Of a DNA stretch of 32,000 bases, positions 3,990 through 17,262 are shown piece after piece (within the stretch, counting starts at the first letter, position 1; the number at the start of each line of letters is the position of its first letter). A program made the position numbers and the translations under genes. This DNA comes from Bellilinea caldifistulae. Lineage in GTDB: Bacteria; Chloroflexota; Anaerolineae; Anaerolineales; Anaerolineaceae. The notes beneath the pieces were generated by a model that was not told the origin of the DNA, searched no databases, and saw only the letters and a program-made list of their open reading frames with translations. The stretch spans positions 120,001 through 152,000 of the forward strand of contig NZ_LGHJ01000017.1 in assembly GCF_001306055.1 (NCBI RefSeq), in the 5' to 3' direction.

Positions 3990-5405
3990 ATGCTGCAAGA
4001 AACCAAACAACGCAATCAATTGCTTTTTCTTCTCTTTTTCGGTGTGTTGATGGGTGCACTGGATATTGCCATCCTTGGCCCGGCTCTCCCCTCCATCCGC
4101 GCCGAATTCCGCGTGGATGAACGCAATCTGGCCTGGATGTTTAGCAGTTATGTCCTTTTCCAACTGGTCAGCACGCCACTCATGGCAAAACTATCCGACC
4201 TTTACGGCCGCCGCTGGATTTACATCCTGGATATCGCTCTGTTCGGGATGGGGTCACTCCTGGTAGCCACTTCAACCAGTTTCACCGGTGTACTGATCGG
4301 ACGTGCCATTCAGGGGTTTGGAGCCGGCGGTATTTTTCCGGTTGCCAGCGCTGTGATCGGCGACACCTTCCCGCCCGAAAAACGCGGCAGCGCCCTCGGC
4401 ATGATTGGGGCGGTTTTCGGCGTGGCGTTTTTGATCGGCCCGCTGCTGGGAGGTGTCATTCTGGCAATTGCCAACTGGCACTGGCTGTTCCTGATCAATC
4501 TGCCCATCGCCGGTTTGATCATTCTATTCAGCCTGCGTCTGCTGCCCGCCACCCGCCCGGCTACCAGCCGCCGGTTGGATGTGGCTGGCATGATTTTGTT
4601 AGCCCTGTTCCTCGCTGCGCTGACCTTTGGACTGAATCAACTCGACCCCAGCAATTTACCGGACAGTCTGCTCACCCCATCCGTGGGTGGCGTGCTTGCG
4701 CTGGCGTTGGTTTTACTGGTCATTCTCATTCAAGTCGAGCGGCGAATCAGGTTGCCGATGCTGCCCGCTCACTTGTTTAACCGGCGCCAGCTGGGGCTTG
4801 CCTATCTGCTTTCCGCCGGAGCCGGGCTGGCAGAAGCCAGTCTGGTCTTTGTTCCACTGATGGCAGTAACCGGTCTGGCAAATCAGGGCATCAACGAGAA
4901 AAACGCCACATGGCTCCTGATTCCGGCCATTCTCGCCATGGCAATCGGTTCACCCCTCGCCGGACGGCTGCTCGACCGGGTTGGTTCCCGGAATGTGATC
5001 ATGGGCGGTACGGCATTGATGAGCGCCGGTTTTCTCATGCTCAGTCTGCTGGGTGGTCATTTGATTTTCTTTCTGCTTTCGGGAGTATTGATTGGCGGCG
5101 GCTTGACCGCCTTGCTTGGGGCGCCGATCCGGTATATTATGTTAGGTGAAGCCTCAGCCGAGGAGCGTTCGTTGGCGCAAGGGCTGGTTACCCTCTTCAC
5201 CAGCATTGGTCAGTTGATCGGTAGCGCGTTGATCGGCGCACTGGTTGCCTCTTTTGGAACAGCCAACCCCTTCAGAGGGTATCAGACCGCCTTTGCATTG
5301 ATCACCTTCACCAGCCTGATCTTGTTTGTCAGTGCAACCATGCTGAAAACCCGTCAGCGAGAATTGGAGACCCTGGGAGGAAATGAAGCCTTCAGCCGTG
5401 GATAA
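3990..5405 (+). CDS. MFS transporter, DHA2 (EmrB/QacA-like, 14-TMS) drug:H+ antiporter family
   Basis: 471 aa, about 14 hydrophobic segments. MFS motif A-like LSDLYGRRWIY and motif C-like GAGGIFPVASAVIGD. Followed by an overlapping TetR gene. Confidence 0.88.
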   Translation: MLQETKQRNQLLFLLFFGVLMGALDIAILGPALPSIRAEFRVDERNLAWMFSSYVLFQLVSTPLMAKLSDLYGRRWIYILDIALFGMGSLLVATSTSFTGVLIGRAIQGFGAGGIFPVASAVIGDTFPPEKRGSALGMIGAVFGVAFLIGPLLGGVILAIANWHWLFLINLPIAGLIILFSLRLLPATRPATSRRLDVAGMILLALFLAALTFGLNQLDPSNLPDSLLTPSVGGVLALALVLLVILIQVERRIRLPMLPAHLFNRRQLGLAYLLSAGAGLAEASLVFVPLMAVTGLANQGINEKNATWLLIPAILAMAIGSPLAGRLLDRVGSRNVIMGGTALMSAGFLMLSLLGGHLIFFLLSGVLIGGGLTALLGAPIRYIMLGEASAEERSLAQGLVTLFTSIGQLIGSALIGALVASFGTANPFRGYQTAFALITFTSLILFVSATMLKTRQRELETLGGNEAFSRG

Positions 5406-5991
5406 TGCACCGCCTTCGATGCGTGATAAGATCCTTCACCAAACTACCCGCCTGTTTGTAGAGCGCGGCTACGATGGTGTGTCCATCCGCGAAATTGCCG
5501 AGGCTTGCAGCATCACCAAAGCCGCACTTTACTACCACTTTGTGGACAAAGAACGGCTATTGATTGAAATTCTGGAAACGGGACTGGACGCTTTTCATCA
5601 ACTGTTGGAGGATGCCCGACAGAATTACCAAAGCGCCCAGACCCGTATTCGTGCCTTCGTGTTTTCTCTTTTTACCCGTCTGCCGCCTGAAAACCGGGCC
5701 GTCATTCGGCTGGCAACTCAGGAGATGGGCAAGTTGCAACCCGAACTGCGCACCCAATTTGCCCAACATTACCGCGAAAAATTCCTGCAACCCCTGATGG
5801 ACATTTTTACCGAAGGGCAAAAAGCTGGCGAACTGCGGCCACTCTCGGCAGAACTGGCGGTGTGGGCTTTATTGGGAATGCTTTACCCCTTCATGAGCGG
5901 CGAATCCGCTCTCCGGCAGGAACCGAGTCCTCAACAATTGGAGCAGTTGCTGGATATTTTTTGGATCGGAATTGCCAGCCATTCCAGATGA
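5383..5991 (+). CDS. TetR/AcrR family transcriptional regulator
   Basis: N-terminal TetR HTH (ILHQTTRLFVERGYDGVSIREIAEACSITKAALYYHF). The start is uncertain: ATG 5383 overlaps the MFS gene by 23 nt, and ATG 5419 is the alternative. Confidence 0.9.
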   Translation: MKPSAVDNAPPSMRDKILHQTTRLFVERGYDGVSIREIAEACSITKAALYYHFVDKERLLIEILETGLDAFHQLLEDARQNYQSAQTRIRAFVFSLFTRLPPENRAVIRLATQEMGKLQPELRTQFAQHYREKFLQPLMDIFTEGQKAGELRPLSAELAVWALLGMLYPFMSGESALRQEPSPQQLEQLLDIFWIGIASHSR

Positions 5992-6033: not shown

Positions 6034-8697
6034 ATGCCGCCGCTGGTCTGGACGAAATTTAAAATTCCGCCCCTGCGCGCCAAAAGCGTGCTTCGTCCAC
6101 GCCTGCTGGATAATCTCAATCGTGGCCTGGCAAGCCGGTTGATTTTGATTTCTGCTCCGGCCGGTTTTGGCAAAACCACCACAATGATTCAATGGTTGCA
6201 GAGCCAGCCTCTGCCCGCACTGTGGGTAGCACTGGAAGAAACCGATGATGATCCCATCCGTTTTTTCAGCGCATGGATCACCTGTCTGCGGCAAATCATC
6301 CCCTCTTATAGTGATGATCTGCTTCAGGTTCTGCTTTCTGCCCAATTACCCGCCGGTGATTTGCTCTCGGCGGAATTGATCAACCCTCTGATTCAATTAA
6401 ACCAACCTGCCATCCTCGTTCTGGATGATTTTCAGCACATTCAAGACCGGAGTATCTTACGGTTTATCCAGGATGCGATTGCCTATCTGCCGTCAGAATT
6501 TCACCTCGCCATCCTCACGCGGGAAGACCCCGCCCTGCCATTAGCCCGCCTGCGCTCACAAAACGAACTGGTTGAAATCCGCACCAATGATTTGAGATTT
6601 GACCCGACAGAGAGCGGTCAGCTGCTCACCGAGATTCTGAACATCTCGCTTGAACCTTCCCTTGTTACCGCCCTGACCGAACGCACCGAAGGCTGGGCAG
6701 CAGGTTTGCAATTAGCCGGTTTATCGCTGCAGGGCAGCCTTCAACCGGCCGATTTAATTCAAGATATGGCTGCCGGCAAGCGGTTTATGTTGAACTATCT
6801 GGCAGAAGAAGTTTTGAATAAACAGCCCCCGGACATTCAGGATTTCCTTCTCAAAACATCCTTGCTTACCACATTAAACGCCGAACGTTGCAATCTACTC
6901 ACCGGGCGAGAGGATAGCGCCGAGCTGTTGGAGAAACTGGATAAAAGCAATCTCTTCATCCAACCGCTGGATGAGCAATTGCGCTTTTACCGCTTTCACG
7001 CTTTGTTTGCCGAATTGCTACGCAACCGGTTGAACCGCCAGGGAGAGGAAGAAGTCCGCAATTTGCACCTGCGAGCTGCTCAAGCCCTGCTAGCCGAAGG
7101 GTTAGTCACCGAGAGCCTTTCCCACTTTCTCGCTGCAAAAGATTATCCGGCAGTTGTGGCATTATTGGAAAACCACATTTGGGAATGGATCAACCACATG
7201 CCGGCGGCCCAACTGGAAGGGGTGCTTTCTCAAATCCCGCCAGAAATCCAGTTTTCCCACCCGCGCCTGTTATTGGGGCTGGGGTGGTTGTATCTGTTGC
7301 AGGGGAATTTTCCCCGCCTGGCTGGCATCCTTCAATCACTGGAAAGTCGGCTGGTAGAAAACAAACCGGTTTCAGACGACTTGGCTCTGTTACGCGCCGA
7401 GTTCCTTGCTCTGCAGGCAAACTTGCTTCAGGTTCAGCAAAAATTCGACCAGGCCATTCAGTCCGCCCGGCAATCTCTGGCTCTGATAGAGCGTAAAAAT
7501 GACCGGATTGCCTCGCTGGCTTTTCTGGCATTGGGAGGGGGGCTGCGTCAAAAGGGGGATTACGAAGAAGCTCGCACTGCCCTGGAAAATGCCATTCAGC
7601 TCAGTCGCAGCAACGATGATCCGGTAACGGATATTCTGGCTGTTTCGCATTTGACATTAATGGCGCTGGAATACGGTCAATTAGAAATGGCCGCCCGCGT
7701 CGCACAGGCGGCAATCCAGCATCTCGAACAGCACCCGAACGGTTATCCGGCGGTATTGGGCGCGGTTTACGGAGCATTGGGTTGGGTTTACTACCACCGC
7801 AATCAACCCGAACTTGCCGCTCAATTTATACTGCGGGGGATTCATCTGGCGGAGTTGAGCGGACACAACGCTTCAGCGGTCTATTCGCTGGCGGGCATGG
7901 CCCGCCTGCACATTGCTCGGGGTGACCTTGATGCAGCCCGCCAATGCCTGCAACAGGCCGATCAATTCTTTCAGAAAGGCGCACCCGGCTGGGTTTTGCC
8001 CGAATTGATTTCCTGCAAGAGTCGTTTGGCGATTATCGAAGGAAACTGGATGGAAGCCGAGGCAATCCTCACCGCCAGCGGAGTGACGCCGGATTCCGCT
8101 CCTACACCCTATTCAGAACCCCTGCTGATCGCCTGGCTGCGGTTGGCAATTGCTCAGGATACTCTCGAAACCGGGCATGCAATTCTCGAACTCGTCCAGC
8201 GTGTTTTGGAATTTGCTCGCACCAGCCGGCGCAATTACACGCTCCTGCAAGCGCTGGTCGCCGGAGCGATTCTTTACTTCAAAAACGGAGATACTAACCA
8301 GGCCGGTCAATGGCTAGAGGAAGCGGTTCAGCTGGCTGCATCCAGCGGTTACCACAGTATCTTTTTGGAACACCGGCAAGATTTGCTTCTCATCTTGAAA
8401 ACAATCCACAGTCCGGGGCTGGAAGCCTTACTCACCCCATCTGACGAAATTCCGTTGCCCTCCCCCTCGCAAAGTCCGCTCACAAGTGCAAAAAACCTGA
8501 CGGGTATCGCATTGACCGAAAGAGAGCTGGAAGTTTTGCACCTGCTCGCACAGGGGTACACCTATAATCAAATTGCCGAACACCTGGTGATCAGTCTCAA
8601 CACTGTGCGTTTCCATGTCAAAGGAATCTACGGAAAATTGGGGGTTACCAAAGTCAATCAGGCGATTGCAGAAGCCCGTCGGCAGAGCTTAATTTAA
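6034..8697 (+). CDS. MalT-like STAND ATPase / LuxR family transcriptional regulator (NTPase + TPR-like repeats + C-terminal LuxR HTH)
   Basis: 887 aa. Walker A ISAPAGFGKTT and Walker B ILVLDDFQ. A long helical-repeat middle region. C-terminal GerE/LuxR HTH LTERELEVLHLLAQGYTYNQIAEHLVISLNTVRFHVKGIYGKLGV. Confidence 0.9.
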   Translation: MPPLVWTKFKIPPLRAKSVLRPRLLDNLNRGLASRLILISAPAGFGKTTTMIQWLQSQPLPALWVALEETDDDPIRFFSAWITCLRQIIPSYSDDLLQVLLSAQLPAGDLLSAELINPLIQLNQPAILVLDDFQHIQDRSILRFIQDAIAYLPSEFHLAILTREDPALPLARLRSQNELVEIRTNDLRFDPTESGQLLTEILNISLEPSLVTALTERTEGWAAGLQLAGLSLQGSLQPADLIQDMAAGKRFMLNYLAEEVLNKQPPDIQDFLLKTSLLTTLNAERCNLLTGREDSAELLEKLDKSNLFIQPLDEQLRFYRFHALFAELLRNRLNRQGEEEVRNLHLRAAQALLAEGLVTESLSHFLAAKDYPAVVALLENHIWEWINHMPAAQLEGVLSQIPPEIQFSHPRLLLGLGWLYLLQGNFPRLAGILQSLESRLVENKPVSDDLALLRAEFLALQANLLQVQQKFDQAIQSARQSLALIERKNDRIASLAFLALGGGLRQKGDYEEARTALENAIQLSRSNDDPVTDILAVSHLTLMALEYGQLEMAARVAQAAIQHLEQHPNGYPAVLGAVYGALGWVYYHRNQPELAAQFILRGIHLAELSGHNASAVYSLAGMARLHIARGDLDAARQCLQQADQFFQKGAPGWVLPELISCKSRLAIIEGNWMEAEAILTASGVTPDSAPTPYSEPLLIAWLRLAIAQDTLETGHAILELVQRVLEFARTSRRNYTLLQALVAGAILYFKNGDTNQAGQWLEEAVQLAASSGYHSIFLEHRQDLLLILKTIHSPGLEALLTPSDEIPLPSPSQSPLTSAKNLTGIALTERELEVLHLLAQGYTYNQIAEHLVISLNTVRFHVKGIYGKLGVTKVNQAIAEARRQSLI

Positions 8698-8796
8698 TGC
8701 CGGCGTCTTAGATGCGGAACTCCCCAAAAAATCTCCCCTGCGGATGAAGGAAATGTGATCAACACGGGGGTTAAAACTACATCCTCCCGTCCGGCC

Positions 8797-8829
8797 GGAC
8801 TACATCTCCATGTAGTCCGTTTTGATGTT
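8797..8829 (+). terminator. hairpin GGACTACAT-ctcc-ATGTAGTCC followed by GTTTTGATGTT: probable terminator of the regulator gene, or a regulatory hairpin in front of the next operon
   Basis: Perfect 9-bp stem (8797-8805/8810-8818) with a 4-nt loop and a T-rich but interrupted tail. It sits 100 nt after the regulator stop and only 31 nt before the next ATG. Confidence 0.5.
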
Positions 8830-8849
8830 AAAAGCCCTAAACTAAAGAC

Positions 8850-9101
8850 ATGAAAAATAATGCTTTAACTCAACCCCAATCAGAATCTTACCGCATCATT
8901 GTCAAGGGTGTAATGGAGGAGGAATTTCTCCACGATTATTGCCCGCCCGGTTTTACGCTGAGTTACAACAATGGAAGAACAACACTGGTGAACCTGCAAA
9001 CGGATCAGGCCGGCATGTTGGGTTTGATCCGCCAGTTACACAATCTTGGCGTGACGGTGATGCTGGTAGAACTTCAATCCGAAATGGAGGATACCCAATG
9101 A
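8850..9101 (+). CDS. small conserved hypothetical protein (83 aa)
   Basis: The pattern YRIIVKG...F......T.L......DQAGMLGLIRQLHNLGVTVMLVEL resembles a small alpha/beta protein family that I recall being annotated only as hypothetical in Actinobacteria/Chloroflexi (from memory, not verified). Its stop overlaps the next start (ATGA). No obvious Shine-Dalgarno. Confidence 0.6.
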   Translation: MKNNALTQPQSESYRIIVKGVMEEEFLHDYCPPGFTLSYNNGRTTLVNLQTDQAGMLGLIRQLHNLGVTVMLVELQSEMEDTQ

Positions 9102-9754
9102 GTGAGAAGAAAGTTTCCCGCCGTGAATTTTTGAAAATCGCTGGTGTTGGGCTGGCTGCAACCGCCTTCGCCTGCTCTGGATTAGGATGCGCAGCCACCC
9201 GCCAATCTCAAATTAATTTACCCGAAATGAATTTAGGAAAGGAAAATGCTGTGAATAATATTTTGGTTACTTACTCAACCCGTGCCGGTTCAACTGCCGA
9301 AATTGCTGCGGCAATCGGACAAACTCTCGCTCAGCGCGGTTACACCGTTGATGTCCTGCCGGTCAAAAAACAGCCCAACCCTTCAGATTATGACGCCGTG
9401 ATTTTGGGAAGCCCAATCCGCATGGGAAGCTGGCTGCCGGAAGTGATTGGTTTTGTAAAGGAAAACCGTGCCCTGCTAGAGCAGATACCCGTTGCGGCCT
9501 TTACCGTCCACATGCTCAACGGCGGGGACGACGAACAGAGCCGGGCTAATCGTCAGGCTTACTTGAACGCGGTTCGTGAGTGGATTACCCCTGCTGAAGA
9601 AGCCTTCTTTCTCGGCAAAATGGAACTGGCAAAACTATCTTTTCTTGACCGGTTTATCTCCAACGCGATGAAAGCCAAAGACGAAAATTTACGCGACTGG
9701 AATGCCGTTCATGCCTTTGCCGAATCGGTTTTTGCACGGGTTGAAACGCAATGA
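9098..9754 (+). CDS. flavodoxin-fold protein (Flavodoxin_5/HemG-like) with an N-terminal twin-arginine (Tat) signal
   Basis: I use ATG 9098 (GGAGG at 9086-9090), not the track's 8939. The N-terminus MSEKKVSRREFLKIAGVGLAATAFAC matches the Tat consensus S-R-R-x-F-L-K plus an h-region. The domain ILVTYSTRAGSTAEIAAAIGQTL...AVILGSPIRMGSW is the flavodoxin-like FMN-binding pattern. Confidence 0.8.
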   Translation: MSEKKVSRREFLKIAGVGLAATAFACSGLGCAATRQSQINLPEMNLGKENAVNNILVTYSTRAGSTAEIAAAIGQTLAQRGYTVDVLPVKKQPNPSDYDAVILGSPIRMGSWLPEVIGFVKENRALLEQIPVAAFTVHMLNGGDDEQSRANRQAYLNAVREWITPAEEAFFLGKMELAKLSFLDRFISNAMKAKDENLRDWNAVHAFAESVFARVETQ

Positions 9755-10605
9755 AACCCCCTGCCGCCTTACGGATACTTGTGCCGTTGATTTTGCTTCT
9801 GGCTTTGATTGCTGCTGGCGGCGGCTTGTTCCCCGCCGCCGGTCAGCCTTTTACAGTGGTCAATTTCCGCGGCGAGGAGGTCACCATCAATGCCCGCGGA
9901 CTCTACTATTGGGATACGCTCAGTTCTGCTGCCCAGATGCAAGCCAATGACGCAGTAACCCTTTTCCTTGCATTACCATTGCTGACCATTTCTTTCTGGC
10001 TGACTCAAAAAGGCTCATTGCGCGGTGGATTACTCATGACCGGAACGCTTGGTTTTATCCTGTACACCTACATTACCATGTGTTTTGGCGCCGCTTACAA
10101 TCCCTTTTTCCTGATTTATGTAGCCCTTTTCAGCCTGAGCCTGTTTGCCTTCGTTTTGAGCATGATGTCCTTTGATGTGAAAACCCTGCCGGCGCGTTTT
10201 TCCCAAAAGCTGCCTCGTAAATGGATTGCTGGCTTGTTGTTATTTGTGGCTGCCTTTCTCTCTCTGGCGTGGATAGGACGAATTGCTCAGACCTTTACAC
10301 CCGGCGCTATTCCGACCCTTGAAAATACGACCAGCATGTTCATTCAGGCGATGGACTTGGGAATTGTAGTGCCGGTGTGCCTCCTCTCGGCAGTCTTATT
10401 GCTGCGGCGCAGCTCTTGGGGCTACCTTCTTGCTTCGGTTGGTCTGGTTAAATTCCTCACCCTCGGCACCGCTGTCAGCCTGATGGGGTTGAACATGGCC
10501 CGAGTGGGTGTTCCTATCAGCCCGGTGGAGTTAATCGTTTTCAGCAGTATGGGCCTGGCTGGCATCATCACCACGTTTATCTTTTTGAAGAATGTGATGG
10601 ATTAA
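9751..10605 (+). CDS. polytopic membrane protein of unknown function (paralog A)
   Basis: 284 aa, about 7 hydrophobic segments. ATGA overlap with the upstream gene. Collinear similarity to the 11404-12276 product (GEEVTI..RGLY / REEITL..KGLY; NDAVTLF / TDAVTLF; FSLSLFAF / FSLSLFSF). Confidence 0.7.
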   Translation: MKPPAALRILVPLILLLALIAAGGGLFPAAGQPFTVVNFRGEEVTINARGLYYWDTLSSAAQMQANDAVTLFLALPLLTISFWLTQKGSLRGGLLMTGTLGFILYTYITMCFGAAYNPFFLIYVALFSLSLFAFVLSMMSFDVKTLPARFSQKLPRKWIAGLLLFVAAFLSLAWIGRIAQTFTPGAIPTLENTTSMFIQAMDLGIVVPVCLLSAVLLLRRSSWGYLLASVGLVKFLTLGTAVSLMGLNMARVGVPISPVELIVFSSMGLAGIITTFIFLKNVMD

Positions 10606-10608
10606 ACC

Positions 10609-11382
10609 ATGACCCTGCTTCAAAAAAATCATCAACGTTCGGTTGCAATTCTGGTTTTGCTGGGAATTGGATTTCTGGTACTGACCCGTTTGATCAGTGA
10701 AATTTCTTTTGTACTCGCCAGGCCTATTTACCAATCGCTGAAGTTTCTCGATCCGGATGGGAGTTTTCTTTACATTTCCATTCACCACATCTTTCAGGGC
10801 ATCCTGGCGTTACTCGCCATCTGGCTTGTTTCAAGAATCTGGCGAATTCCCTTTGCAGATTTCGGTTTCAATACCCGCCAGTGGCAAAACGCCTTACGCT
10901 GGGTGTTCCAGTTTTGTCTATTCTGGTTTATCCTGCAAATCAGTATTGGGTTGTGGCTGGTGTTTTCCGGCAGCGCCTTATCCAATTTTCCCTTCCCGCT
11001 GAACGCTCGAAACTTTGGTGGTTATTTTGCTTTTCAAATCCTGCTTTCTGGCACCGGCGAAGAACCCCTTTTTCGCTCTCTGGTGATGATGCCTCTGCTT
11101 TTCTACGGCAGGAAAATTGGTTTAAGCAATCAACGCAATGCTGTCATTGCTGCCGGTATTGCCACCCTTATTTTTATGTTTGCCCATATCAACTTTGCCC
11201 TTAATCCGCTAGGGGTTACGTACTTCAACCCCCTCCAGCAATTAACCTGCCTGACTTTTGGTATCTTCTACGCCTTTCTTTTCCTGCGCACAAAGAGCGT
11301 TCTTGGGCCGATTCTTGCTCATAATCTGCTCAACGCGGTCATCATCACCAGCGGGTTGATTCTCATTTTGAGCTTTGGTTGA
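10609..11382 (+). CDS. CPBP family intramembrane glutamic endopeptidase (CAAX protease/Abi family)
   Basis: All three CPBP motifs are present in order: EExxxR (GEEPLFRSLV), FxxxH (FMFAHINF) and HxxxN (AHNLLNAV). 257-aa polytopic protein. Confidence 0.85.
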   Translation: MTLLQKNHQRSVAILVLLGIGFLVLTRLISEISFVLARPIYQSLKFLDPDGSFLYISIHHIFQGILALLAIWLVSRIWRIPFADFGFNTRQWQNALRWVFQFCLFWFILQISIGLWLVFSGSALSNFPFPLNARNFGGYFAFQILLSGTGEEPLFRSLVMMPLLFYGRKIGLSNQRNAVIAAGIATLIFMFAHINFALNPLGVTYFNPLQQLTCLTFGIFYAFLFLRTKSVLGPILAHNLLNAVIITSGLILILSFG

Positions 11383-11403
11383 TTGTTCAGAAAAGGATAA
11401 AAA

Positions 11404-12276
11404 ATGACTAAGACCTCTTTTGTCATCCGCGCATCCTACCTGATCGCATTATTATCCGCAATTTTTTCAACGATGGGTTTACTTTTGCCTTTGGATGGCC
11501 ATACCATGATGGCGGTAACCCCTCAGCGAGAGGAAATCACCCTCTATGGAAAAGGCTTGTATCGCAACGACAGTGCATTTAAAGCCGGCATACTGCGGGG
11601 TACGGATGCGGTCACCCTCTTTGTGGGTGTTCCAGCGCTCCTGGCAGTTACCCGCCAGGTATCCCGCGGGGGCATAAGAGCAAAACTGGCATTACTTGGT
11701 CTTCTAGCCTATTTTACGTACAACAGTGCCTCGCTTGCGCTGGGTGCTTACTGGAATGAGATGCTCCTGATGTACATCATTTGCTTTTCTTTGAGCCTGT
11801 TTAGTTTTATCTCGTTATTCCAGTCCATTGAGATATCCTCTCTTGCCTATCAAATCCGCCCGGCAATGCCGTACCGCGTACTGGCTGGTTTTTGCGCCTT
11901 CAGTGGTTTATCCCTGCTGGTTTGGCTGGCAGACATATTCACAGCGCTCACTCAGGGAAAACCGCCCGCTCATCTGGATCATTACCATACCGAAATTACC
12001 TATGTTCTGGATTTAGCGATCCTTTTACCCGCCATTTACCTGGCAAGTTTCCAGTTATGGAATCGCAATGTGCAGGGGGTTCGACTGGCTGCAATATTAC
12101 TCATTCTTCTTGTGTTTACTGGTCTTGTAGTGGCCGGGCAAAGCATCGTTCAAGCGCTGGACGGCATCATTCACAGCCCCCAGGAATACGCTGCCTATGT
12201 AGCCCCCTTTATTTTTCTCAGCCTGATTGCAACAGGACTGACCTTTGCAATATTCAGGAATATTGCAAAGACCTGA
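11404..12276 (+). CDS. polytopic membrane protein of unknown function (paralog B)
   Basis: 290 aa. Same predicted topology and shared motifs as the 9751-10605 product. Last gene of the operon. Confidence 0.7.
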   Translation: MTKTSFVIRASYLIALLSAIFSTMGLLLPLDGHTMMAVTPQREEITLYGKGLYRNDSAFKAGILRGTDAVTLFVGVPALLAVTRQVSRGGIRAKLALLGLLAYFTYNSASLALGAYWNEMLLMYIICFSLSLFSFISLFQSIEISSLAYQIRPAMPYRVLAGFCAFSGLSLLVWLADIFTALTQGKPPAHLDHYHTEITYVLDLAILLPAIYLASFQLWNRNVQGVRLAAILLILLVFTGLVVAGQSIVQALDGIIHSPQEYAAYVAPFIFLSLIATGLTFAIFRNIAKT

Positions 12277-12371: not shown

Positions 12372-12400
12372 TTGACATTCTCGCCCCGCACAGATAAAAT
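12372..12400 (+). promoter_or_regulatory. sigma-70-type promoter (TTGACA - 17 nt - TAAAAT) for the coaE-cdaA-cdaR-der operon
   Basis: TTGACA at 12372-12377 and TAAAAT at 12395-12400, with an exact 17-nt spacer. It lies 43 nt upstream of the GTG start (12443), which has an AGGAGA Shine-Dalgarno. Confidence 0.65.
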
Positions 12401-12442: not shown

Positions 12443-13582
12443 GTGAGTCACTGGGCGGGTAAATATGTCATTGGACTGACCGGCAACATTGGAACGGGCA
12501 AAAGCGTGGTGCGGCGCATGTTGGAGCATCTCGGTGCGTATGGTATTGATGCCGATGCACTGGCACACCGCGTGATTGCCAAAGGGGCACCCGGCTACGC
12601 GGCAGTGGTGGACTACTTTGGCAAGTACATTCTCAAACCGGACGGCGAAATTGACCGGGGACGGTTGGGTAGAATTGTGTTTGGCGACCCCGAAGCACTG
12701 GCAAAACTGGAAAGCATTATTCACCCGCTGGTGCGACAAGGCGCCGATTATCTGATTCGACGGGCTACTCAACCGGTCATTGTGATTGAGGCGATAAAGC
12801 TGCTCGAATCGAGCATGGCAAAGCAATGCGATAGTGTGTGGGTCGTGTATGCTCCGCCGGATATTCAGCTGGCACGCCTGATGAAAAACCGGGGGATGAA
12901 CGAAAAGGATGCCCGCCAACGGATCACCAGTCAGCCGCCGCAGGAAGAGAAAATTGCAGCCGCTGATGTGGTGATTCGAAATGCCGGCACATTCGATGAA
13001 ACCTGGAAACAGGTTATCACAGCCTGGCGAAAGTATGTTCCGTTGGTTGAAGAAGCTCCCCCTCAAGCCGTGCAAGCCCCAAACATCAAGGGACAAATTC
13101 AAATCGAACGTGGCCGTCCGCGTCACTCCAATGAGATTGCCGGCCTTCTAAATCGGCTTGATAAAAAAGGCAAACCCATGACCAGCGAAGACGTGATGGC
13201 CGCCTTTGGGGAAAAAGCCTTTTTGTTACTGCGCTTGGACGAGCAACTGAAAGGTTTAATCGGCTGGCAGGTTGAAAATCTGGTCGCCCGAACCACCGAC
13301 ATTCATCTGGATCCCACCTTGCCGCTTGATGAAGCCGTACCCGCCCTGATTCAAGAGATGGAACGAGCCTCAAGCGACTTACAATGTGAAGCATCGCTGG
13401 TGTTTGTGCCGCCGTCCCTGGCAAGACATGATGGGTTATGGCGCAAGTTGGGCTACCAGCGCACCTCTCCCGAAGCATTAGAAGTGCAGGCCTGGCAGGA
13501 TGCCGCCCGTGAATCCATGCCTCCCGGTAGTGTTTTACTTTTTAAAAAATTGCGTGAGGATCGGGTACTGCGCCCAATTTGA
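12443..13582 (+). CDS. coaE: dephospho-CoA kinase with a ~180-aa C-terminal extension
   Basis: GTG start. N-terminus YVIGLTGNIGTGKSVVRRML (CoaE P-loop) and the rest of the ~200-aa CoaE fold (IDADALAHRV..., IHPLV..., VIEAIKLLES). Residues from about 200 to 379 are additional sequence not found in canonical CoaE. Confidence 0.85.
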   Translation: MSHWAGKYVIGLTGNIGTGKSVVRRMLEHLGAYGIDADALAHRVIAKGAPGYAAVVDYFGKYILKPDGEIDRGRLGRIVFGDPEALAKLESIIHPLVRQGADYLIRRATQPVIVIEAIKLLESSMAKQCDSVWVVYAPPDIQLARLMKNRGMNEKDARQRITSQPPQEEKIAAADVVIRNAGTFDETWKQVITAWRKYVPLVEEAPPQAVQAPNIKGQIQIERGRPRHSNEIAGLLNRLDKKGKPMTSEDVMAAFGEKAFLLLRLDEQLKGLIGWQVENLVARTTDIHLDPTLPLDEAVPALIQEMERASSDLQCEASLVFVPPSLARHDGLWRKLGYQRTSPEALEVQAWQDAARESMPPGSVLLFKKLREDRVLRPI

Positions 13583-13591
13583 TCTTTATTT

Positions 13592-14494
13592 GTGGGGTTT
13601 CCCAGCGTGACTGAGTTACTGAATGAACTCACCTTCATTTTCCAGCGCTTCAACTGGTTGAGCGCCCTGGACCTGTTTCTGGTCACGCTGGTTTTTTTTG
13701 GGGTGTTGTTACTGGTACGGGACACGCAGGCAATGGTACTGCTGCGCGGTGTTTTACTGCTGGTGGTTGCCCTGAGTCTGTTGACCAGTCTGGTTAGCCT
13801 GCCGGCCTTTTCATGGCTGATCCAAACTATTGCCCCAACGCTGGTACTGGCTATACCGGTCATTTTCGCTCCCGAAATCCGGCGCGGTTTGGAAAGGCTG
13901 GGACGGGCGGGTTCGCCAGCGGCTATCTTCTGGCAGCAAAGCGAAAAAGACGTTTCCACAATGCGCGAGACGATTCAGGCGGTTGTCAGCGCCTGTGCCC
14001 GGCTTTCTGCACGCCAGCATGGCGCATTGATCATCTTACAGCGCGGCGACAGTTTGCAGGAATACATCCGCACTGGCGTACGTCTGAACGCCAAGGTAAC
14101 CCCGGAATTGCTTCTACAAATCTTTTATCCAAACACCCCGCTGCATGATGGGGCTGCAATCATCGTCCGCGATCAGGTTGCAGCAGCCGCCTGCGTCATG
14201 CCGCTTTCTGCCAGCGGCATTCTCAATCGTTCACCGGAAAGGCAAATGGGGTTACGCCACCGGGCTGCCCTGGGCACGTCTGAAGCTACGGATGCGATTG
14301 CAGTGGTGGTCTCGGAAGAAACCGGCTCAATTTCGATTGCCCATGGTGGTCGGATGATTCGCCGGTTGGACAGCGAACGGCTGGAAAACATTTTGATGGC
14401 TTTTTATCAGCCACCTCCCAAAACGAGCAGCCTGAGTGATTGGTTCAGGAGAAACCGAAAACCACCGGCTTTCCGTGAGGATATTGAGCGATGA
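13592..14494 (+). CDS. cdaA: diadenylate cyclase CdaA (membrane-anchored DAC domain)
   Basis: Three N-terminal TM helices, then a DAC domain with the DGA (TPLHDGAAII) and RHR (GLRHRAALG) motifs and SEETGSISIA. GTG start (13592; alternative GTG at 13607). Confidence 0.92.
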   Translation: MGFPSVTELLNELTFIFQRFNWLSALDLFLVTLVFFGVLLLVRDTQAMVLLRGVLLLVVALSLLTSLVSLPAFSWLIQTIAPTLVLAIPVIFAPEIRRGLERLGRAGSPAAIFWQQSEKDVSTMRETIQAVVSACARLSARQHGALIILQRGDSLQEYIRTGVRLNAKVTPELLLQIFYPNTPLHDGAAIIVRDQVAAAACVMPLSASGILNRSPERQMGLRHRAALGTSEATDAIAVVVSEETGSISIAHGGRMIRRLDSERLENILMAFYQPPPKTSSLSDWFRRNRKPPAFREDIER

Positions 14495-15753
14495 TTGAGG
14501 TTTTACGCCGACTGCTTCGTCTTTTACCCTCCCTGATTACGGCGTTCGTTTTAGCGCTGGCAGTTTGGATTTCGGCAGTCAGTTCGAGCGACCCGCTGGT
14601 TGAACGCACCTACCCCAATCCTTTGCCCATCGAAATTATCGGGCAGGATCCGGGGCTGGTTATCACCTCACCAGTTCCAGGCTCGGTAACCGTGGTCCTC
14701 AGCGCACCCCAGTCCATCTGGAATCAACTGACCACCGAAACAGGATCAGTGCGTGCCTTCCTCGACCTTTCTGGTCTGGAAGCCGGCAGCCATACCGTGC
14801 CGGTTAAGATTCAAATCGCCGCCCGGCCGGTTCGCAAGATTGCCCAATCTCCTCAGACGATTACCATCACACTGGAACGCCTGGCCAGTAAAGAATTTCC
14901 GATCCGAGTGGTGACCCGCGGCAGCCCGGCGGTTGGTTACACTGCTGATACCCCCACCCTCAGCCAGACCTCCGTGACGGTCAGCGGACCGGAATCGCAG
15001 GTCAATCGCGTTGCGGAAGTTCAGGCTATTTTGGATATCAGTCAGGCTACCGAAACCATCAGCCGGACGGTCAATCTGGTTGCGGTGGATGCCAATGACA
15101 ATCCGATCAACGGCTTAAGTTTATTGCCCGACCGGGTAACCGTTCGGCAGAATATCTCCCAGCGCTTTGGCTACCGCAATGTGGTCGTCAAGGTTGTCGT
15201 ACTGGGTCAGGTTGCCAGCGGCTATCGCCTCACGAATATTTCGGTGTTTCCGCCGGCGGTTACGGTCTTTTCGGCTGATCCGCAAGTCGTCAGTGATTTA
15301 CCCGGTTTTATCGAAACCGAACCCCTCAACATCAACGGGTTGAAGGATGATCTGGATATTTCCCTGAGTCTCAATCTGCCTGCAGGTGTTTCTGTGGTTG
15401 GGGATCAAACCGAAGTACTGGTGCGGGTCGGTGTTGCGGCTATTGAAAGCAGTTTAACCCTGCCCAACATCCCGGTGGAAATCACCGGCTTACAGCCGGG
15501 ACTGAGCGCCGAAATCTCACCGGAAACGATCACGGTAATTATTTCCGGCCCGGTTGCCTTGCTTGACCGCTTGCGCGCCACAGATGTACGGGCTGTGGTT
15601 GATTTGAGCACGCTGTCCGAAGGCACCTACCAGATCGAACCGGAGGTCGAAATCCTGATCGCCGAGTTGAAGACCGAATCGCTCCTGCCGGAAAGCGTGG
15701 AAGTTATCATCACTCGGACAACCCGTTCAAGCAGTGGTACAATCACCCCTTGA
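14491..15753 (+). CDS. cdaR: CdaR (YbbR-domain) regulator of diadenylate cyclase
   Basis: ATGA overlap with cdaA. One N-terminal TM helix, then four repeated ~85-aa beta-rich YbbR-like modules (repeating V.V.....P.GV.V...P..V.V.V pattern). This is the canonical position downstream of cdaA. Confidence 0.85.
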   Translation: MIEVLRRLLRLLPSLITAFVLALAVWISAVSSSDPLVERTYPNPLPIEIIGQDPGLVITSPVPGSVTVVLSAPQSIWNQLTTETGSVRAFLDLSGLEAGSHTVPVKIQIAARPVRKIAQSPQTITITLERLASKEFPIRVVTRGSPAVGYTADTPTLSQTSVTVSGPESQVNRVAEVQAILDISQATETISRTVNLVAVDANDNPINGLSLLPDRVTVRQNISQRFGYRNVVVKVVVLGQVASGYRLTNISVFPPAVTVFSADPQVVSDLPGFIETEPLNINGLKDDLDISLSLNLPAGVSVVGDQTEVLVRVGVAAIESSLTLPNIPVEITGLQPGLSAEISPETITVIISGPVALLDRLRATDVRAVVDLSTLSEGTYQIEPEVEILIAELKTESLLPESVEVIITRTTRSSSGTITP

Positions 15754-15761
15754 GGTGAACG

Positions 15762-17123
15762 ATGCGCAAACCGATTGTTGCTCTGGTCGGGCGACCGAAC
15801 GTAGGAAAAAGCACCCTCTTCAATCGTCTGGCCGGTGAACCGCTGGCGATTGTGGATGATACTCCCGGCACCACCCGCGACCGGCTGATGGCCGAAGCGG
15901 AGTGGAATGGGCGTTACTTCTTCATTGTGGATACCGGCGGTATTGACCCCTCCACCGGCGGGAAAGAGGCCCTCTCCGTCGGGTCGGCCGACTATATTCA
16001 ACAAATTCGCCAACAGGCCGAGTTAGCCATTCGAGAAGCGGACGTCGTTTTATTCCTGACCGATGCCATTACCGGTGTTACTCCTGCTGATCAGGAAGTT
16101 GCTCAAATTTTACGCCGCAATCAGAAAATCATCGAAGGCAAGCCGCACCCGCCTGTGCTGCTGGTGGTCAATAAAGCCGACAACCAGACCTTTCGGAGCG
16201 GCGCGGCTGAATTTTACGAATTGGGTATCGGTGAGCCTTACCCCATTTCGGCCCTGCACGGTACCGGCACCGGGGATTTACTGGATGATTTGGTGGCAGC
16301 ATTCCCATCCGATACCGAGGAAGAAGAGGATGATTCGGTCAAAATTGCGATTGTGGGCAAGCCCAACGTTGGGAAGTCCAGCCTGCTGAATCGACTGGTT
16401 GGGGAGGAACGTGCCATCGTCAGCCCGATTGCCGGCACCACCCGCGATGCGGTGGACACAAAAATTGTCTTTGAAGACATCGAAATCACCCTGATTGACA
16501 CAGCCGGCATCCGCCGGCGGGGCAAAATTGAGCCGGGAGTTGAAAAATACAGCGTCATCCGTTCAATGCGTGCCATTGAGCGCGCTGATGTTGCCCTGCT
16601 GATGATTGACGCCACCACCGGCATTACCGCCCAGGATGCTCACATTGCCGGTTATATACTGGAAGCCCAGAAAAGCACAGTGGTGCTGGTCAACAAATGG
16701 GATGCGGTCGAAAAAGACAATTTCACCATGCAAAATTACACCAGCCGCATCCGGCAGGAATTGAATTTTATGGATTTTGTACCGATTTTATTCATCTCGG
16801 CAAAAACCGGCCAGCGGGTTGATCAGGTGCTGCCACTGGCTTTAAGAGTGCAGGAAGAACGGCTGGCGCGGTTAACTACCGGACAGCTAAACCGTATTCT
16901 CCAAAACGCGCAGGACGCCCACCACGCTACCTCGCGCACCGGTAAGTCGCTGCGGATTTACTATGGGACTCAGGTACGCAGTGACCCGCCAACCTTCCTG
17001 ATTTATGTCAACGACCCGAAACTGGCTCACTTCACTTACCTGCGTTATTTAGAAAACGCCATTCGGAAGGAGTACCCTTTCACCGGCACACCCATCCGGC
17101 TTGTACTGAAACCGCGACGTTAG
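15762..17123 (+). CDS. der: ribosome-biogenesis GTPase Der (EngA), tandem GTPase domains plus KH-like domain
   Basis: Two G domains (GRPNVGKSTLFN ... DTGG ... NKAD; GKPNVGKSSLLN ... DTAG ... NKWD) and a C-terminal KH-like region. Confidence 0.95.
   Translation: MRKPIVALVGRPNVGKSTLFNRLAGEPLAIVDDTPGTTRDRLMAEAEWNGRYFFIVDTGGIDPSTGGKEALSVGSADYIQQIRQQAELAIREADVVLFLTDAITGVTPADQEVAQILRRNQKIIEGKPHPPVLLVVNKADNQTFRSGAAEFYELGIGEPYPISALHGTGTGDLLDDLVAAFPSDTEEEEDDSVKIAIVGKPNVGKSSLLNRLVGEERAIVSPIAGTTRDAVDTKIVFEDIEITLIDTAGIRRRGKIEPGVEKYSVIRSMRAIERADVALLMIDATTGITAQDAHIAGYILEAQKSTVVLVNKWDAVEKDNFTMQNYTSRIRQELNFMDFVPILFISAKTGQRVDQVLPLALRVQEERLARLTTGQLNRILQNAQDAHHATSRTGKSLRIYYGTQVRSDPPTFLIYVNDPKLAHFTYLRYLENAIRKEYPFTGTPIRLVLKPRR

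Positions 17124-17190: not shown

Positions 17191-17262
<72 letters not shown>

Follow-up and report, generated by a model that had tools for sequence, protein, structure and literature searches.

A MalT-type regulator, a conserved ACTACAT operator and an envelope operon of undescribed parts in Bellilinea caldifistulae and other Chloroflexota

We analysed a 32,000 nt stretch of the genome of Bellilinea caldifistulae (contig NZ_LGHJ01000017.1, positions 120,001 to 152,000; hereafter the window), in which five genes, here called g1 to g5, follow the gene of an 887 aa regulator of the LAL (MalT-type STAND) family. Comparison with related loci makes it highly likely that this regulator acts through an operator with the motif ACTACAT and controls the g1-g5 operon, with g1, g2 and g3 as its conserved payload. 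The explanation that we favour as a whole, in which the LAL-driven operon serves a quinone-linked flavin redox activity outside the cytoplasm, falls a little short of an even chance. The features of the operon and its control region are as follows.

6034-8697, plus strand: predicted LAL/MalT-type STAND activator, 887 aa, from Pfam and NCBIfam domain matches
8776-8782, plus strand: upstream operator half-site ACTACAT, putative centre near -71, from an anchored alignment of 36 sites
8797-8818, plus strand: palindromic operator GGACTACAT-CTCC-ATGTAGTCC, putative centre at -42.5, from comparative evidence; may double as terminator hairpin of the regulator gene
8838-8843, plus strand: -10 box TAAACT of the operon promoter, from the anchored alignment
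8850-9101, plus strand: g1, 83 aa, soluble ACT-like protein
9098-9754, plus strand: g2, 218 aa from the ATG at 9098, HemG-like flavodoxin with a twin-arginine translocation (Tat) signal, probably membrane-anchored
9751-10605, plus strand: g3, 284 aa, membrane protein of an undescribed family with eight predicted transmembrane helices, N-in/C-in
10609-11382, plus strand: g4, 257 aa, CPBP/Rce1-like intramembrane glutamic protease, lineage-specific accessory
11404-12276, plus strand: g5, 290 aa, second member of the g3 family, accessory

Operator, promoter and regulator

The listing of open reading frames (ORFs) and reads of the sequence placed five plus-strand ORFs head to tail at 8850-12276, with ATGA overlaps at 9098-9101 (g1/g2) and 9751-9754 (g2/g3) and gaps of 3 nt (g3/g4) and 21 nt (g4/g5), and g5 is preceded by its own AAGGA ribosome-binding site. 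Publicly available annotation for the source genome (GCA_001050215.2, contig DF967971.1) likewise calls these five genes. A preliminary description of this DNA had given these same-strand genes with the same overlaps and gaps, had seen in them one tightly packed unit, and had assigned a Tat signal with a flavodoxin fold, a CPBP protease and two membrane paralogues; layout and packing were confirmed here, as were the domain assignments, by Pfam matches and by alignment of g3 with g5.

The 152 nt spacer between the MalT-like gene and g1 contains a perfect 9+9 palindrome at 8797-8818, which the preliminary description did not remark upon. Every regulator-g1 spacer taken from related loci carried the palindrome GGACTACAT-N4-ATGTAGTCC, which has a single match in the 32 kb window and none in 100 shuffles, and the only three ACTACAT heptamers of the window all lie within 8776-8816. 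Related loci were collected by a scan of one genome per species with a profile of 11 closer g3 sequences, which gave 80 loci at 61-88% identity. Allowing up to 3 mismatches, the palindrome was found at 35 sites in 32 of these 80 loci, over 1.06 Mb of sequence, and 31 of the 35 sites were located approximately 50-370 nt ahead of g1, of g2 where g1 was undetected, or of g3 where neither was present (the last in L024, L059, L063, L069 and L083). Three further sites head other genes: in L028 this is the regulator gene, and in L041 and L078 it is a second operon. The remaining one (L025, 3 mismatches) looks like a chance match.

Alignment of 36 sites, anchored on the palindrome, showed that the arms are kept as sequence while the 4 nt spacer varies, and that this conservation of the arms spans Bellilinea, Chloroflexus, Chloroploca and Caldilinea. 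A third heptamer (aACTACAT) was present at fixed spacing 22-23 nt upstream of the palindrome, which is followed by a T-run and then by a TAnAcT box 19 nt past the palindrome. The -35 position holds GTCCGT, a poor match to the hexamer which overlaps the right operator arm. The palindrome centre lies 42.5 nt upstream of the position 7 nt past the TAnAcT box, and with this box taken by its consensus as the -10 element, a start at that position would put the centre of the palindrome at -42.5, with the half-site close to -71, a geometry suggestive of an activator-dependent promoter of the class II type. In the window, as in the four relatives nearest to it, the distance from the final base of the -10 box to the start of the g1 ATG is exactly 7 nt, and the g1 mRNA is thus predicted to be leaderless, starting at the A of the ATG, which would explain why g1 lacks a ribosome-binding site. 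In loci further removed, g1 is preceded by a short leader that contains a GGAG-type site.

A collection of metagenomes was also scanned with the palindrome alone, yielding 65 contigs which were oriented by the half-site and the T-run. This operator-only scan found g1 downstream in 49 of the 60 loci with enough sequence, a MalT-like gene ending just upstream in 34/55, g2 following in 30/47, and g3 following in 14/22.

The regulator has the domain order AAA_16, WHD_MalT, TPR_MalT and GerE, which is the architecture of MalT, with Pfam matches to AAA_16, TPR_MalT (3.3e-37, 129 bits) and GerE (2.9e-15, 56 bits) and a Walker A motif of GFGKTT. It thus combines the NTPase, winged helix, TPR sensor and C-terminal LuxR/GerE helix-turn-helix (HTH) of LAL or MalT-type STAND proteins in one chain of ~900 aa. 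Its score against the NCBIfam MalT equivalog NF003420 (408.1 bits, with the model aligned over residues 4-791) is under the cut-off of 537. In 21 genome loci an orthologue of the regulator (36-82% identity) immediately precedes the operator, and a full-length MalT-like protein was encoded upstream on the same strand in 24 of the 80 loci.

The recognition helix of the regulator reads SLNTVRFHVK, and the operator co-varies with this helix: the ACTACAT operator was present with 21/21 orthologous LALs (at least 36% identity) and with 0/8 paralogous LALs (~30% identity). The helix SxNTVR[FY]H[VI]K pairs with ACTACAT, and the helix ALDTVKRHxNN with TAACAC-N4-GTGTTA, in the same geometry. The paralogous LAL loci (L038, ~580-760; L045, ~5530-5700; L056, ~5820-5990) have the spacer palindrome CGCCTAACAC-N4-GTGTTAGGCG, different in its letters from the window operator and with the same 4 nt spacing, and the paralogous LAL heads an analogous operon of a 75 aa 'DQAALHG' protein, a Tat-signal nitroreductase of the Acg family, g2 and g3. 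At 14 further loci, a short LuxR response regulator of the NarL type stands before g3 in place of an LAL (for example in L010, L014, L019, L026, L040, L042, L044, L052 and L076), and its helix reads S(T/A)(A/V)KFHVSS; some of these loci, such as L026, have a PAS-GAF-HisKA_3 histidine kinase alongside. The ACTACAT operator was not found in these 14 loci.

On comparative grounds, the operator-only scan and the covariation of regulator and site together argue strongly for binding of the palindrome by the LAL and for its driving of the operon. The conserved synteny (24/80 genomes), conserved operator and helix/operator covariation make it very probable that the operon has its dedicated regulator in the STAND/LuxR protein, a role for which the preliminary description had considered it plausible. 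For the oligomerisation and DNA binding in dependence on ATP and inducer that mark the LAL family, the three heptamers per promoter and the covariation with the helix give indirect support.

Second copies of the operator head other operons (L041, 499-3900 and 3942-7134; L145; L078, 328-4400), which suggests a regulon wider than the operon of the window. These operons encode an alpha/beta hydrolase, AmpH/class-C-like proteins of the beta-lactamase fold, a SigW-like sigma factor of the extracytoplasmic function (ECF) type, a 461 aa protein with a C-terminal CPBP domain, and a DUF7010 protein.

The spacer hairpin could also have a simpler meaning. A terminator-pattern scan flagged 8796-8819 as terminator-like, and the RNA of 8760-8860 folds at -27.9 kcal/mol (z -3.5). 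If the hairpin did no more than terminate the MalT-like gene, and g1-g5 were neighbours by accident, both its stable fold and T-run, which agree with a simple terminator pattern, and the variability of g4 and g5 would be accounted for. We have set the plain terminator aside because the arms are conserved as sequence from Bellilinea to Caldilinea, with the unpaired third heptamer and the -10 box at fixed distances, and because the operator-only search recovers the same gene order; furthermore, the site stands directly before g3 with no gene ending upstream and no T-run in L059, L063 and L069, and the HTH helix co-varies with the palindrome. A chance cluster is therefore already largely refuted, and we consider it very improbable. 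The T-run was absent at the sites where no regulator gene ends upstream (L059 3067, L063 7897, L069 7888 and L028 3773), and hence the palindrome may have a dual role as operator and as terminator of the regulator gene. A riboswitch or other leader in the spacer was rejected, as Rfam gave no match at E<=1 within 8650-8900; over the whole window Rfam gave nothing but one tRNA.

Conservation of the gene set

The 80 genome loci were nearly all from Chloroflexota (Anaerolineae, Caldilineae, Chloroflexus, Chloroploca and Herpetosiphonaceae), and since the scan was based on 11 closer sequences they are skewed to Chloroflexota with at least 61% g3 identity. Gene counts were obtained by tblastn with the window proteins. 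This placed g2 upstream of g3 on the same strand in 35 loci (directly adjacent in 25), found g1 in 25, and showed the regulator, g1 and g2 together in 17. All five genes with the regulator were present only in the window, L005 and two metagenome relatives (L131 and L105), and in L105 the order is that of the window except for a DUF7010 gene lodged between g4 and g5. The Chloroflexus locus L077 carries the LAL gene, g1, g2, g3 and a CPBP gene. The proposal in the preliminary description that the five genes form one system did not hold up, as the full set is confined to the nearest relatives. Its question of whether the genes stay linked in other genomes received a divided answer: linkage of g1, g2 and g3 with the regulator is conserved, but a g4-type CPBP (6/80 loci) and a second g3/g5 paralogue (10/80) are mostly absent. 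Judged by these gene counts, the conserved unit across the phylum Chloroflexota is the LAL regulator, the operator, g1, g2 and g3, and g4 and g5 are add-ons of the Bellilinea lineage.

More distant g3 homologues were examined on seven contigs, and a gene of the Flavodoxin_5 type was located directly upstream in three of these. One is L153 (4397-5879), from a low-GC organism, where the flavodoxin gene follows a MarR gene and lies before the g3 homologue, and encodes an N-in signal-anchor helix MKKILKIFGFAFIALLVIAIITFISLNLW in place of the Tat signal. A second is another low-GC contig, L155 (2-1473), where the flavodoxin before g3 was assigned by reading the translation, without a Pfam match, and the third is a Chloroflexota-type locus. 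The g3 homologues of L153 and L155 have 38-43% identity. Since the pair recurs beside distant g3 homologues, the link between Flavodoxin_5 and g3 appears to be the oldest one, and in the contigs compared it is only this pair that persists beyond the phylum.

The libraries and literature searched held no description of the gene combination, the operator sequence, the regulon, the g1 and g3 families, or the pairing of flavodoxin with g3, in agreement with the preliminary description, which had called the genes undefined in function and their combination undescribed.

Properties and possible function of the operon proteins

The g2 protein matched Pfam Flavodoxin_5 (PF12724) over residues 56-193 with 95.8 bits (3.9e-27; threshold 27 bits), has the flavin mononucleotide (FMN) phosphate loop YSTRAGST, and matched the Pfam TAT_signal family with 22.7 bits, exactly at the cut-off. 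Residues 7-13 are SRREFLK, which conforms to the Tat motif, followed by the hydrophobic segment IAGVGLAATAFA. The Tat motif was present in 24/32 genome orthologues of g2, and in 50 of 69 when the metagenome orthologues were included. After the hydrophobic region there is a conserved CSGLGYAATR segment which is neither a clean lipobox nor an AxA site, and the signal may for this reason stay in place as an anchor.

The best NCBIfam match of g2 was the HemG equivalog NF008316, aligned over 2-171 of its 177 positions. HemG is a member of Flavodoxin_5, an FMN enzyme which passes electrons to menaquinone. This near full-length match could suggest that g2 is a true HemG, that the operon serves protoporphyrinogen oxidation in tetrapyrrole synthesis, and that g3 is a porphyrin-handling partner. 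The score of 61.1 bits is however far under the 142-bit cut-off, the Tat signal would put the enzyme outside the cell, there are no other haem or chlorophyll genes nearby in the window, and inducible control by an LAL with linkage to nitroreductase and CPBP genes is ill-suited to a housekeeping pathway, which together make this role highly improbable.

Related operons of the operator type often contain a second exported flavoprotein, a Tat-signal FMN protein of the Acg family (NCBIfam 303 bits, above the 199 cut-off). Its gene is not in the window itself; it was located between g1/g2 and g3 in 10/80 genome loci and in 12 of the 27 metagenome loci with at least 2.5 kb downstream. An Acg gene was adjacent to 14/50 signal-bearing g2 genes and to 8 of the ~17 signal-less ones, and that signal-less g2 might hitch-hike on Acg through the Tat system is only suggestive.

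Neither g3 nor g5 matched a Pfam or NCBIfam family. With 30% identity over 267 aa (E 9e-26), the two are paralogues within a family of 3837 clusters (at 50% identity) at E<=1e-3, or 473 at E<=1e-30. A search of 47 family members against Pfam at E<=1 showed no consistent family, profile searches against PDB gave nothing below E 1, and the distant homologue clusters are all named 'hypothetical protein'. The AlphaFold 2 model of g3 (predicted local distance difference test, pLDDT, 80.9; predicted template-modelling score 0.79) shows eight helices, with a beta-hairpin in the first of the outside loops, and Foldseek found nothing in PDB below E 0.1 (best E 0.12, TM-score at most 0.34). Leads to ICMT, the partner of Rce1 in CAAX processing, to NrfD/PsrC and to cytochrome b561 were considered, and none matched (best b561, E 0.18, TM-score 0.27-0.34). 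Counts of Lys and Arg in the 47 members, averaging 1.3-3.1 in the inside loops and 0.02-0.9 in the short outside loops, give an N-in/C-in topology. By this topology, the invariant columns (G50, Y52, D67, N117, W174, D202 and P208) are mostly located in the outside loops or at the outer helix ends, and the nearly invariant Y123, P188 and T195 likewise face outward. Haem ligation is ruled out for the g3 protein of the window, as it lacks histidine. Two copies fused in tandem were seen in the family (P0134, 564 aa; P0248, 553 aa; locus L154, 3029-4723), and a working unit of two protomers, such as g3 with g5, would fit with these. A 187 aa DUF7010 membrane protein recurs just downstream of g3 homologues (L059, 4041-4604; L069, 8857-9420; L060, L072, L081, L097, L105 and L156).

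These properties could also belong to a transporter or channel, formed by g3 and g5 as a homo- or heterodimer with the flavodoxin as a redox-sensing ancillary subunit, comparable to KefF and KefG with the potassium efflux systems KefC and KefB. Such stoichiometric partners would be expected to share an overlap like the ATGA of g2 and g3, the paralogue pairs and tandem fusions suggest a two-protomer unit, Asp67, Asn117 and Asp202 are invariant in the 47 members at or near the outer helix ends, there is the KefF-KefC precedent, and the approximately one quarter of g2 orthologues without a signal would be cytoplasmic. Most g2 proteins however carry a Tat signal or, in the low-GC lineage, an N-in anchor, which puts them across the membrane from where a cytoplasmic sensor would be, and the co-occurrence of the Tat-signal Acg nitroreductase points to enzymatic chemistry. 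The membrane paralogues, which by the preliminary description might have turned out to be known transporters, matched no transporter family or fold, and we regard a transport function as unlikely.

The g1 protein matched no Pfam or NCBIfam family and no PDB sequence. A single-sequence search gave 5 matches only, and the family was therefore gathered with a profile of locus-derived homologues; it comprises ~100 clusters, of which those with an organism name are all from Chloroflexota, all 'hypothetical' and all without a Pfam match. Its AlphaFold 2 model (pLDDT 86.7) has the order beta-alpha-beta-beta-alpha-beta, and the best Foldseek matches in PDB are ACT/PII-like and weak (E 0.012-0.2, TM-score 0.5-0.59). 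Invariant residues are Y14, G20, D52, Q53, G58, R61, H64 and G67. By hhalign (97%, E 4.6e-11), g1 shares homology with the 'DQAALHG' proteins encoded after the paralogous LAL, so that both LAL variants share a small ACT-like first gene, and since a g1-type protein always comes first after an LAL-type regulator, it probably gives feedback on the LAL or acts as a co-sensor with it.

The g4 protein matched the Rce1-like/CPBP family of Pfam (PF02517) with 47.6 bits (2e-12; cut-off 22.4), its motifs EEPLFR (at 151), FMFAH (at 189) and HNLLN (at 238) are intact, and its best score against the NCBIfam equivalogs was 23.4 bits, with a cut-off of 225. CPBP genes of five subfamilies, confirmed as Rce1-like, are located beside g3, and a CPBP gene is the adjacent gene of g3 in 17/72 loci; the density was 14.3 per 100 kb within 1 kb of g3 and 1.3-2.2 per 100 kb at 2-8 kb, a difference of ~8-fold. 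In Anaerolinea thermolimosa g3 adjoins a gene for YhfC, which we take to be a distant CPBP relative. A CPBP gene was present in only 4 of the 16 operator-headed metagenome loci with at least 5 kb downstream. The association of CPBP with g3, which is all that stands behind the idea of proteolysis, peptide maturation or immunity in the preliminary description, is real but facultative, and CPBP is an accessory.

From this association one may construct a module for membrane self-protection or for the processing of peptides, with the CPBP/Abi protease at its centre, in which g3 and g5 would be its substrates or partners, or immunity proteins against a membrane-active toxin, the flavoprotein would be a detoxifying accessory, and the LAL would sense the toxin. 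CPBP/Abi proteins are tied to bacteriocin immunity; the five subfamilies and YhfC are encoded on the same strand as g3, on either side and sometimes on both (L011 and L016), and the operons of L041 and L145, with beta-lactamase-fold proteins, alpha/beta hydrolases and an ECF sigma factor, resemble an envelope or antibiotic response. Most operator-headed operons do without CPBP, however, both in the metagenomes and, for the g4 type, in the genomes, there are no toxin, bacteriocin precursor or biosynthetic genes nearby in the window, and the flavodoxin-g3 pair persists without CPBP in distant lineages. The PADLOC defence models also gave no match for g1-g5, and only generic HTH and TPR matches for the regulator. 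We consider a module of this kind doubtful.

We favour the LAL-driven operon with extracytoplasmic flavin redox, in which a ligand would switch on the LAL, and its LuxR-type HTH would recognise the three ACTACAT heptamers, those of the upstream half-site and of the palindrome that replaces a usable -35 box, and activate the class II-type promoter. Transcription would run from the A of the g1 ATG through g1-g5, with the ATGA overlaps coupling the translation of g2 and g3. FMN-loaded g2 would be exported by the Tat system and tethered at the outer face of the membrane, where in many relatives a Tat-exported Acg-type nitroreductase would join it, and g3, with its invariant Asp, Asn, Tyr and Trp residues facing outward and no haem histidine, would be the docking and quinol/quinone-exchange partner of g2. 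Together, g2 and g3 could carry out the quinone-linked reduction or oxidation of an extracytoplasmic substrate, possibly for defence or detoxification, and CPBP, where present, may act on or with the g3-type proteins.

The redox reading is based on the targeting of the flavodoxin by two unrelated means (Tat signal and signal-anchor), the second Tat-exported FMN protein, the outward-facing site of g3 and the chemistry of HemG. An extracytoplasmic redox role had been raised in general terms by the preliminary description, and fits with the Tat signal, the frequent Tat-signal Acg and the outward conserved residues. That the payload is specifically a quinone-linked flavin system at the outer membrane face, with g3 as docking and quinone-exchange partner of the exported flavoproteins, is a possibility which we hold tentatively. 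A bolder form, in which g2 and g3 are the core of a new electron exit, is rather unlikely. Here, in monoderm Chloroflexota and certain low-GC bacteria, the cofactor-less g3 with its eight transmembrane helices would oxidise menaquinol at the outer leaflet and hand the electrons directly to tethered, Tat-exported FMN proteins (the flavodoxin and often the Acg nitroreductase), which would in turn reduce toxic compounds or acceptors outside the cell, with the STAND sensor switching the unit on and the ACT-like g1 tuning it.

Several observations weigh against the favoured explanation, at the level of the promoter as well as that of the proteins. The start site and the -42.5 geometry are derived from a consensus -10 box, and the palindrome with its T-run also fits the pattern of an intrinsic terminator. 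In a close Bellilinea relative (L089, site 10335, +53 to +2210), the operator, g1 and g2 are followed by coaE, without g3-g5, and no flavodoxin gene adjoins 4/7 distant g3 homologues. For g1, the role is guessed from gene position and protein fold. Approximately 17 of the 69 g2 orthologues have no signal or anchor, with an adjacent Tat-signal Acg in only 8 of these cases, so that an outside location of g2 is not universal. Finally, g3 has no detectable similarity to quinol-binding subunits or solved folds, and a quinone role is suggested by analogy.

Surroundings and comparison with known systems

The operon is followed by coaE, for which the boundary feature is:

12372-12400, plus strand: coaE promoter, sigma-70-like TTGACA-17-TAAAAT, 11/12 consensus matches, downstream boundary of the operon

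In relatives without g4 and g5, or without g3-g5 (L007 and L089), coaE comes directly next; it is unrelated to the operon, and its own near-consensus promoter marks the downstream boundary. The coaE gene (12443-13582) encodes 379 aa, of which only residues 8-184 are the CoaE domain, and the C-terminal ~190 aa have no family match, yet are conserved in relatives (89-95% identity, L005-L008). Further downstream, 13592-17123 encodes a diadenylate cyclase (DAC domain), a YbbR-domain protein and a Der/EngA-type GTPase, followed by a tRNA at 17191-17262, all of which look like common housekeeping genes with no relation to the operon. Immediately before the regulator, at 3990-5991, there are genes for an MFS transporter and a TetR protein with a 23 nt overlap, a pair which accompanies the module in the closest relatives only (L006, L007, L009 and L105).

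To our knowledge, almost no transcription factor of the Chloroflexota has a known binding site, and the regulator, operator, promoter and target operon described here offer a concrete and testable regulatory circuit in this phylum. Whatever the function proves to be, the operator and its covariation with the recognition helix show cleanly how specificity has diverged among LAL regulators. Two protein families without a database model have been singled out, g3 with ~3800 clusters and no fold relative in PDB, and the ACT-like g1, confined to Chloroflexota, and the pairing of a membrane-tethered flavodoxin with g3 recurs beyond the phylum. If g2 and g3 do move electrons across the membrane or at its outer face, they would represent a new route for extracytoplasmic flavin chemistry, which would be relevant to the Anaerolineae, common in anaerobic digesters and sediments.

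Some of the parts have known counterparts. The regulator shares its domain order with MalT of E. coli and other LAL proteins such as PikD, and its gene adjoins the target operon. MalT-dependent promoters also lack a good -35 element and contain several repeated motifs, as does the promoter of the window, but the MalT box is asymmetric, whereas the site described here is a 9+9 palindrome with an ACTACAT half-site; the target genes are unrelated to maltodextrins, and the score of the regulator (408 bits) does not reach the 537 bits required by the MalT equivalog. The lux box of LuxR and other class II activators of the LuxR type is a palindrome of ~20 bp at approximately -42.5 over the -35 element, which resembles the geometry proposed for the window. 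LuxR is however a 250 aa autoinducer receptor and the activator of the window an 887 aa STAND NTPase, and relative to the lux box the window adds an upstream half-site and a predicted leaderless transcript.

Among the proteins, g2 has the Flavodoxin_5 domain, the phosphate loop STRxGxT and an alignment over the full model in common with HemG, the menaquinone-dependent protoporphyrinogen IX dehydrogenase, and is distinguished from it by its score (61 versus 142 bits), its twin-arginine signal or anchor, its pairing with g3 and its inducible operon. The Pfam score and three motifs connect g4 with the CPBP, Rce1-like or Abi proteases; it differs in having no equivalog-level NCBIfam score, no evident CAAX-type or sorting-signal substrate, and a facultative presence. 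The Acg family of FMN-binding, nitroreductase-like proteins, to which Rv2032 and Rv3131 of M. tuberculosis belong, has members in many of the related operons, though not in the window, and the Chloroflexota versions differ in carrying Tat signals. By analogy, the pairing of a Tat-exported cofactor protein with a haem-ligand-free protein of eight transmembrane helices and a polar outer face is a design shared with the quinol-dehydrogenase anchors of the NrfD/PsrC type, from which g3 differs in lacking sequence or fold similarity and in having a flavodoxin, not an iron-sulfur or molybdopterin protein, as exported partner. The type of regulator and the promoter logic are thus of known kinds, and what they control is an activator-driven envelope operon built from undescribed parts.

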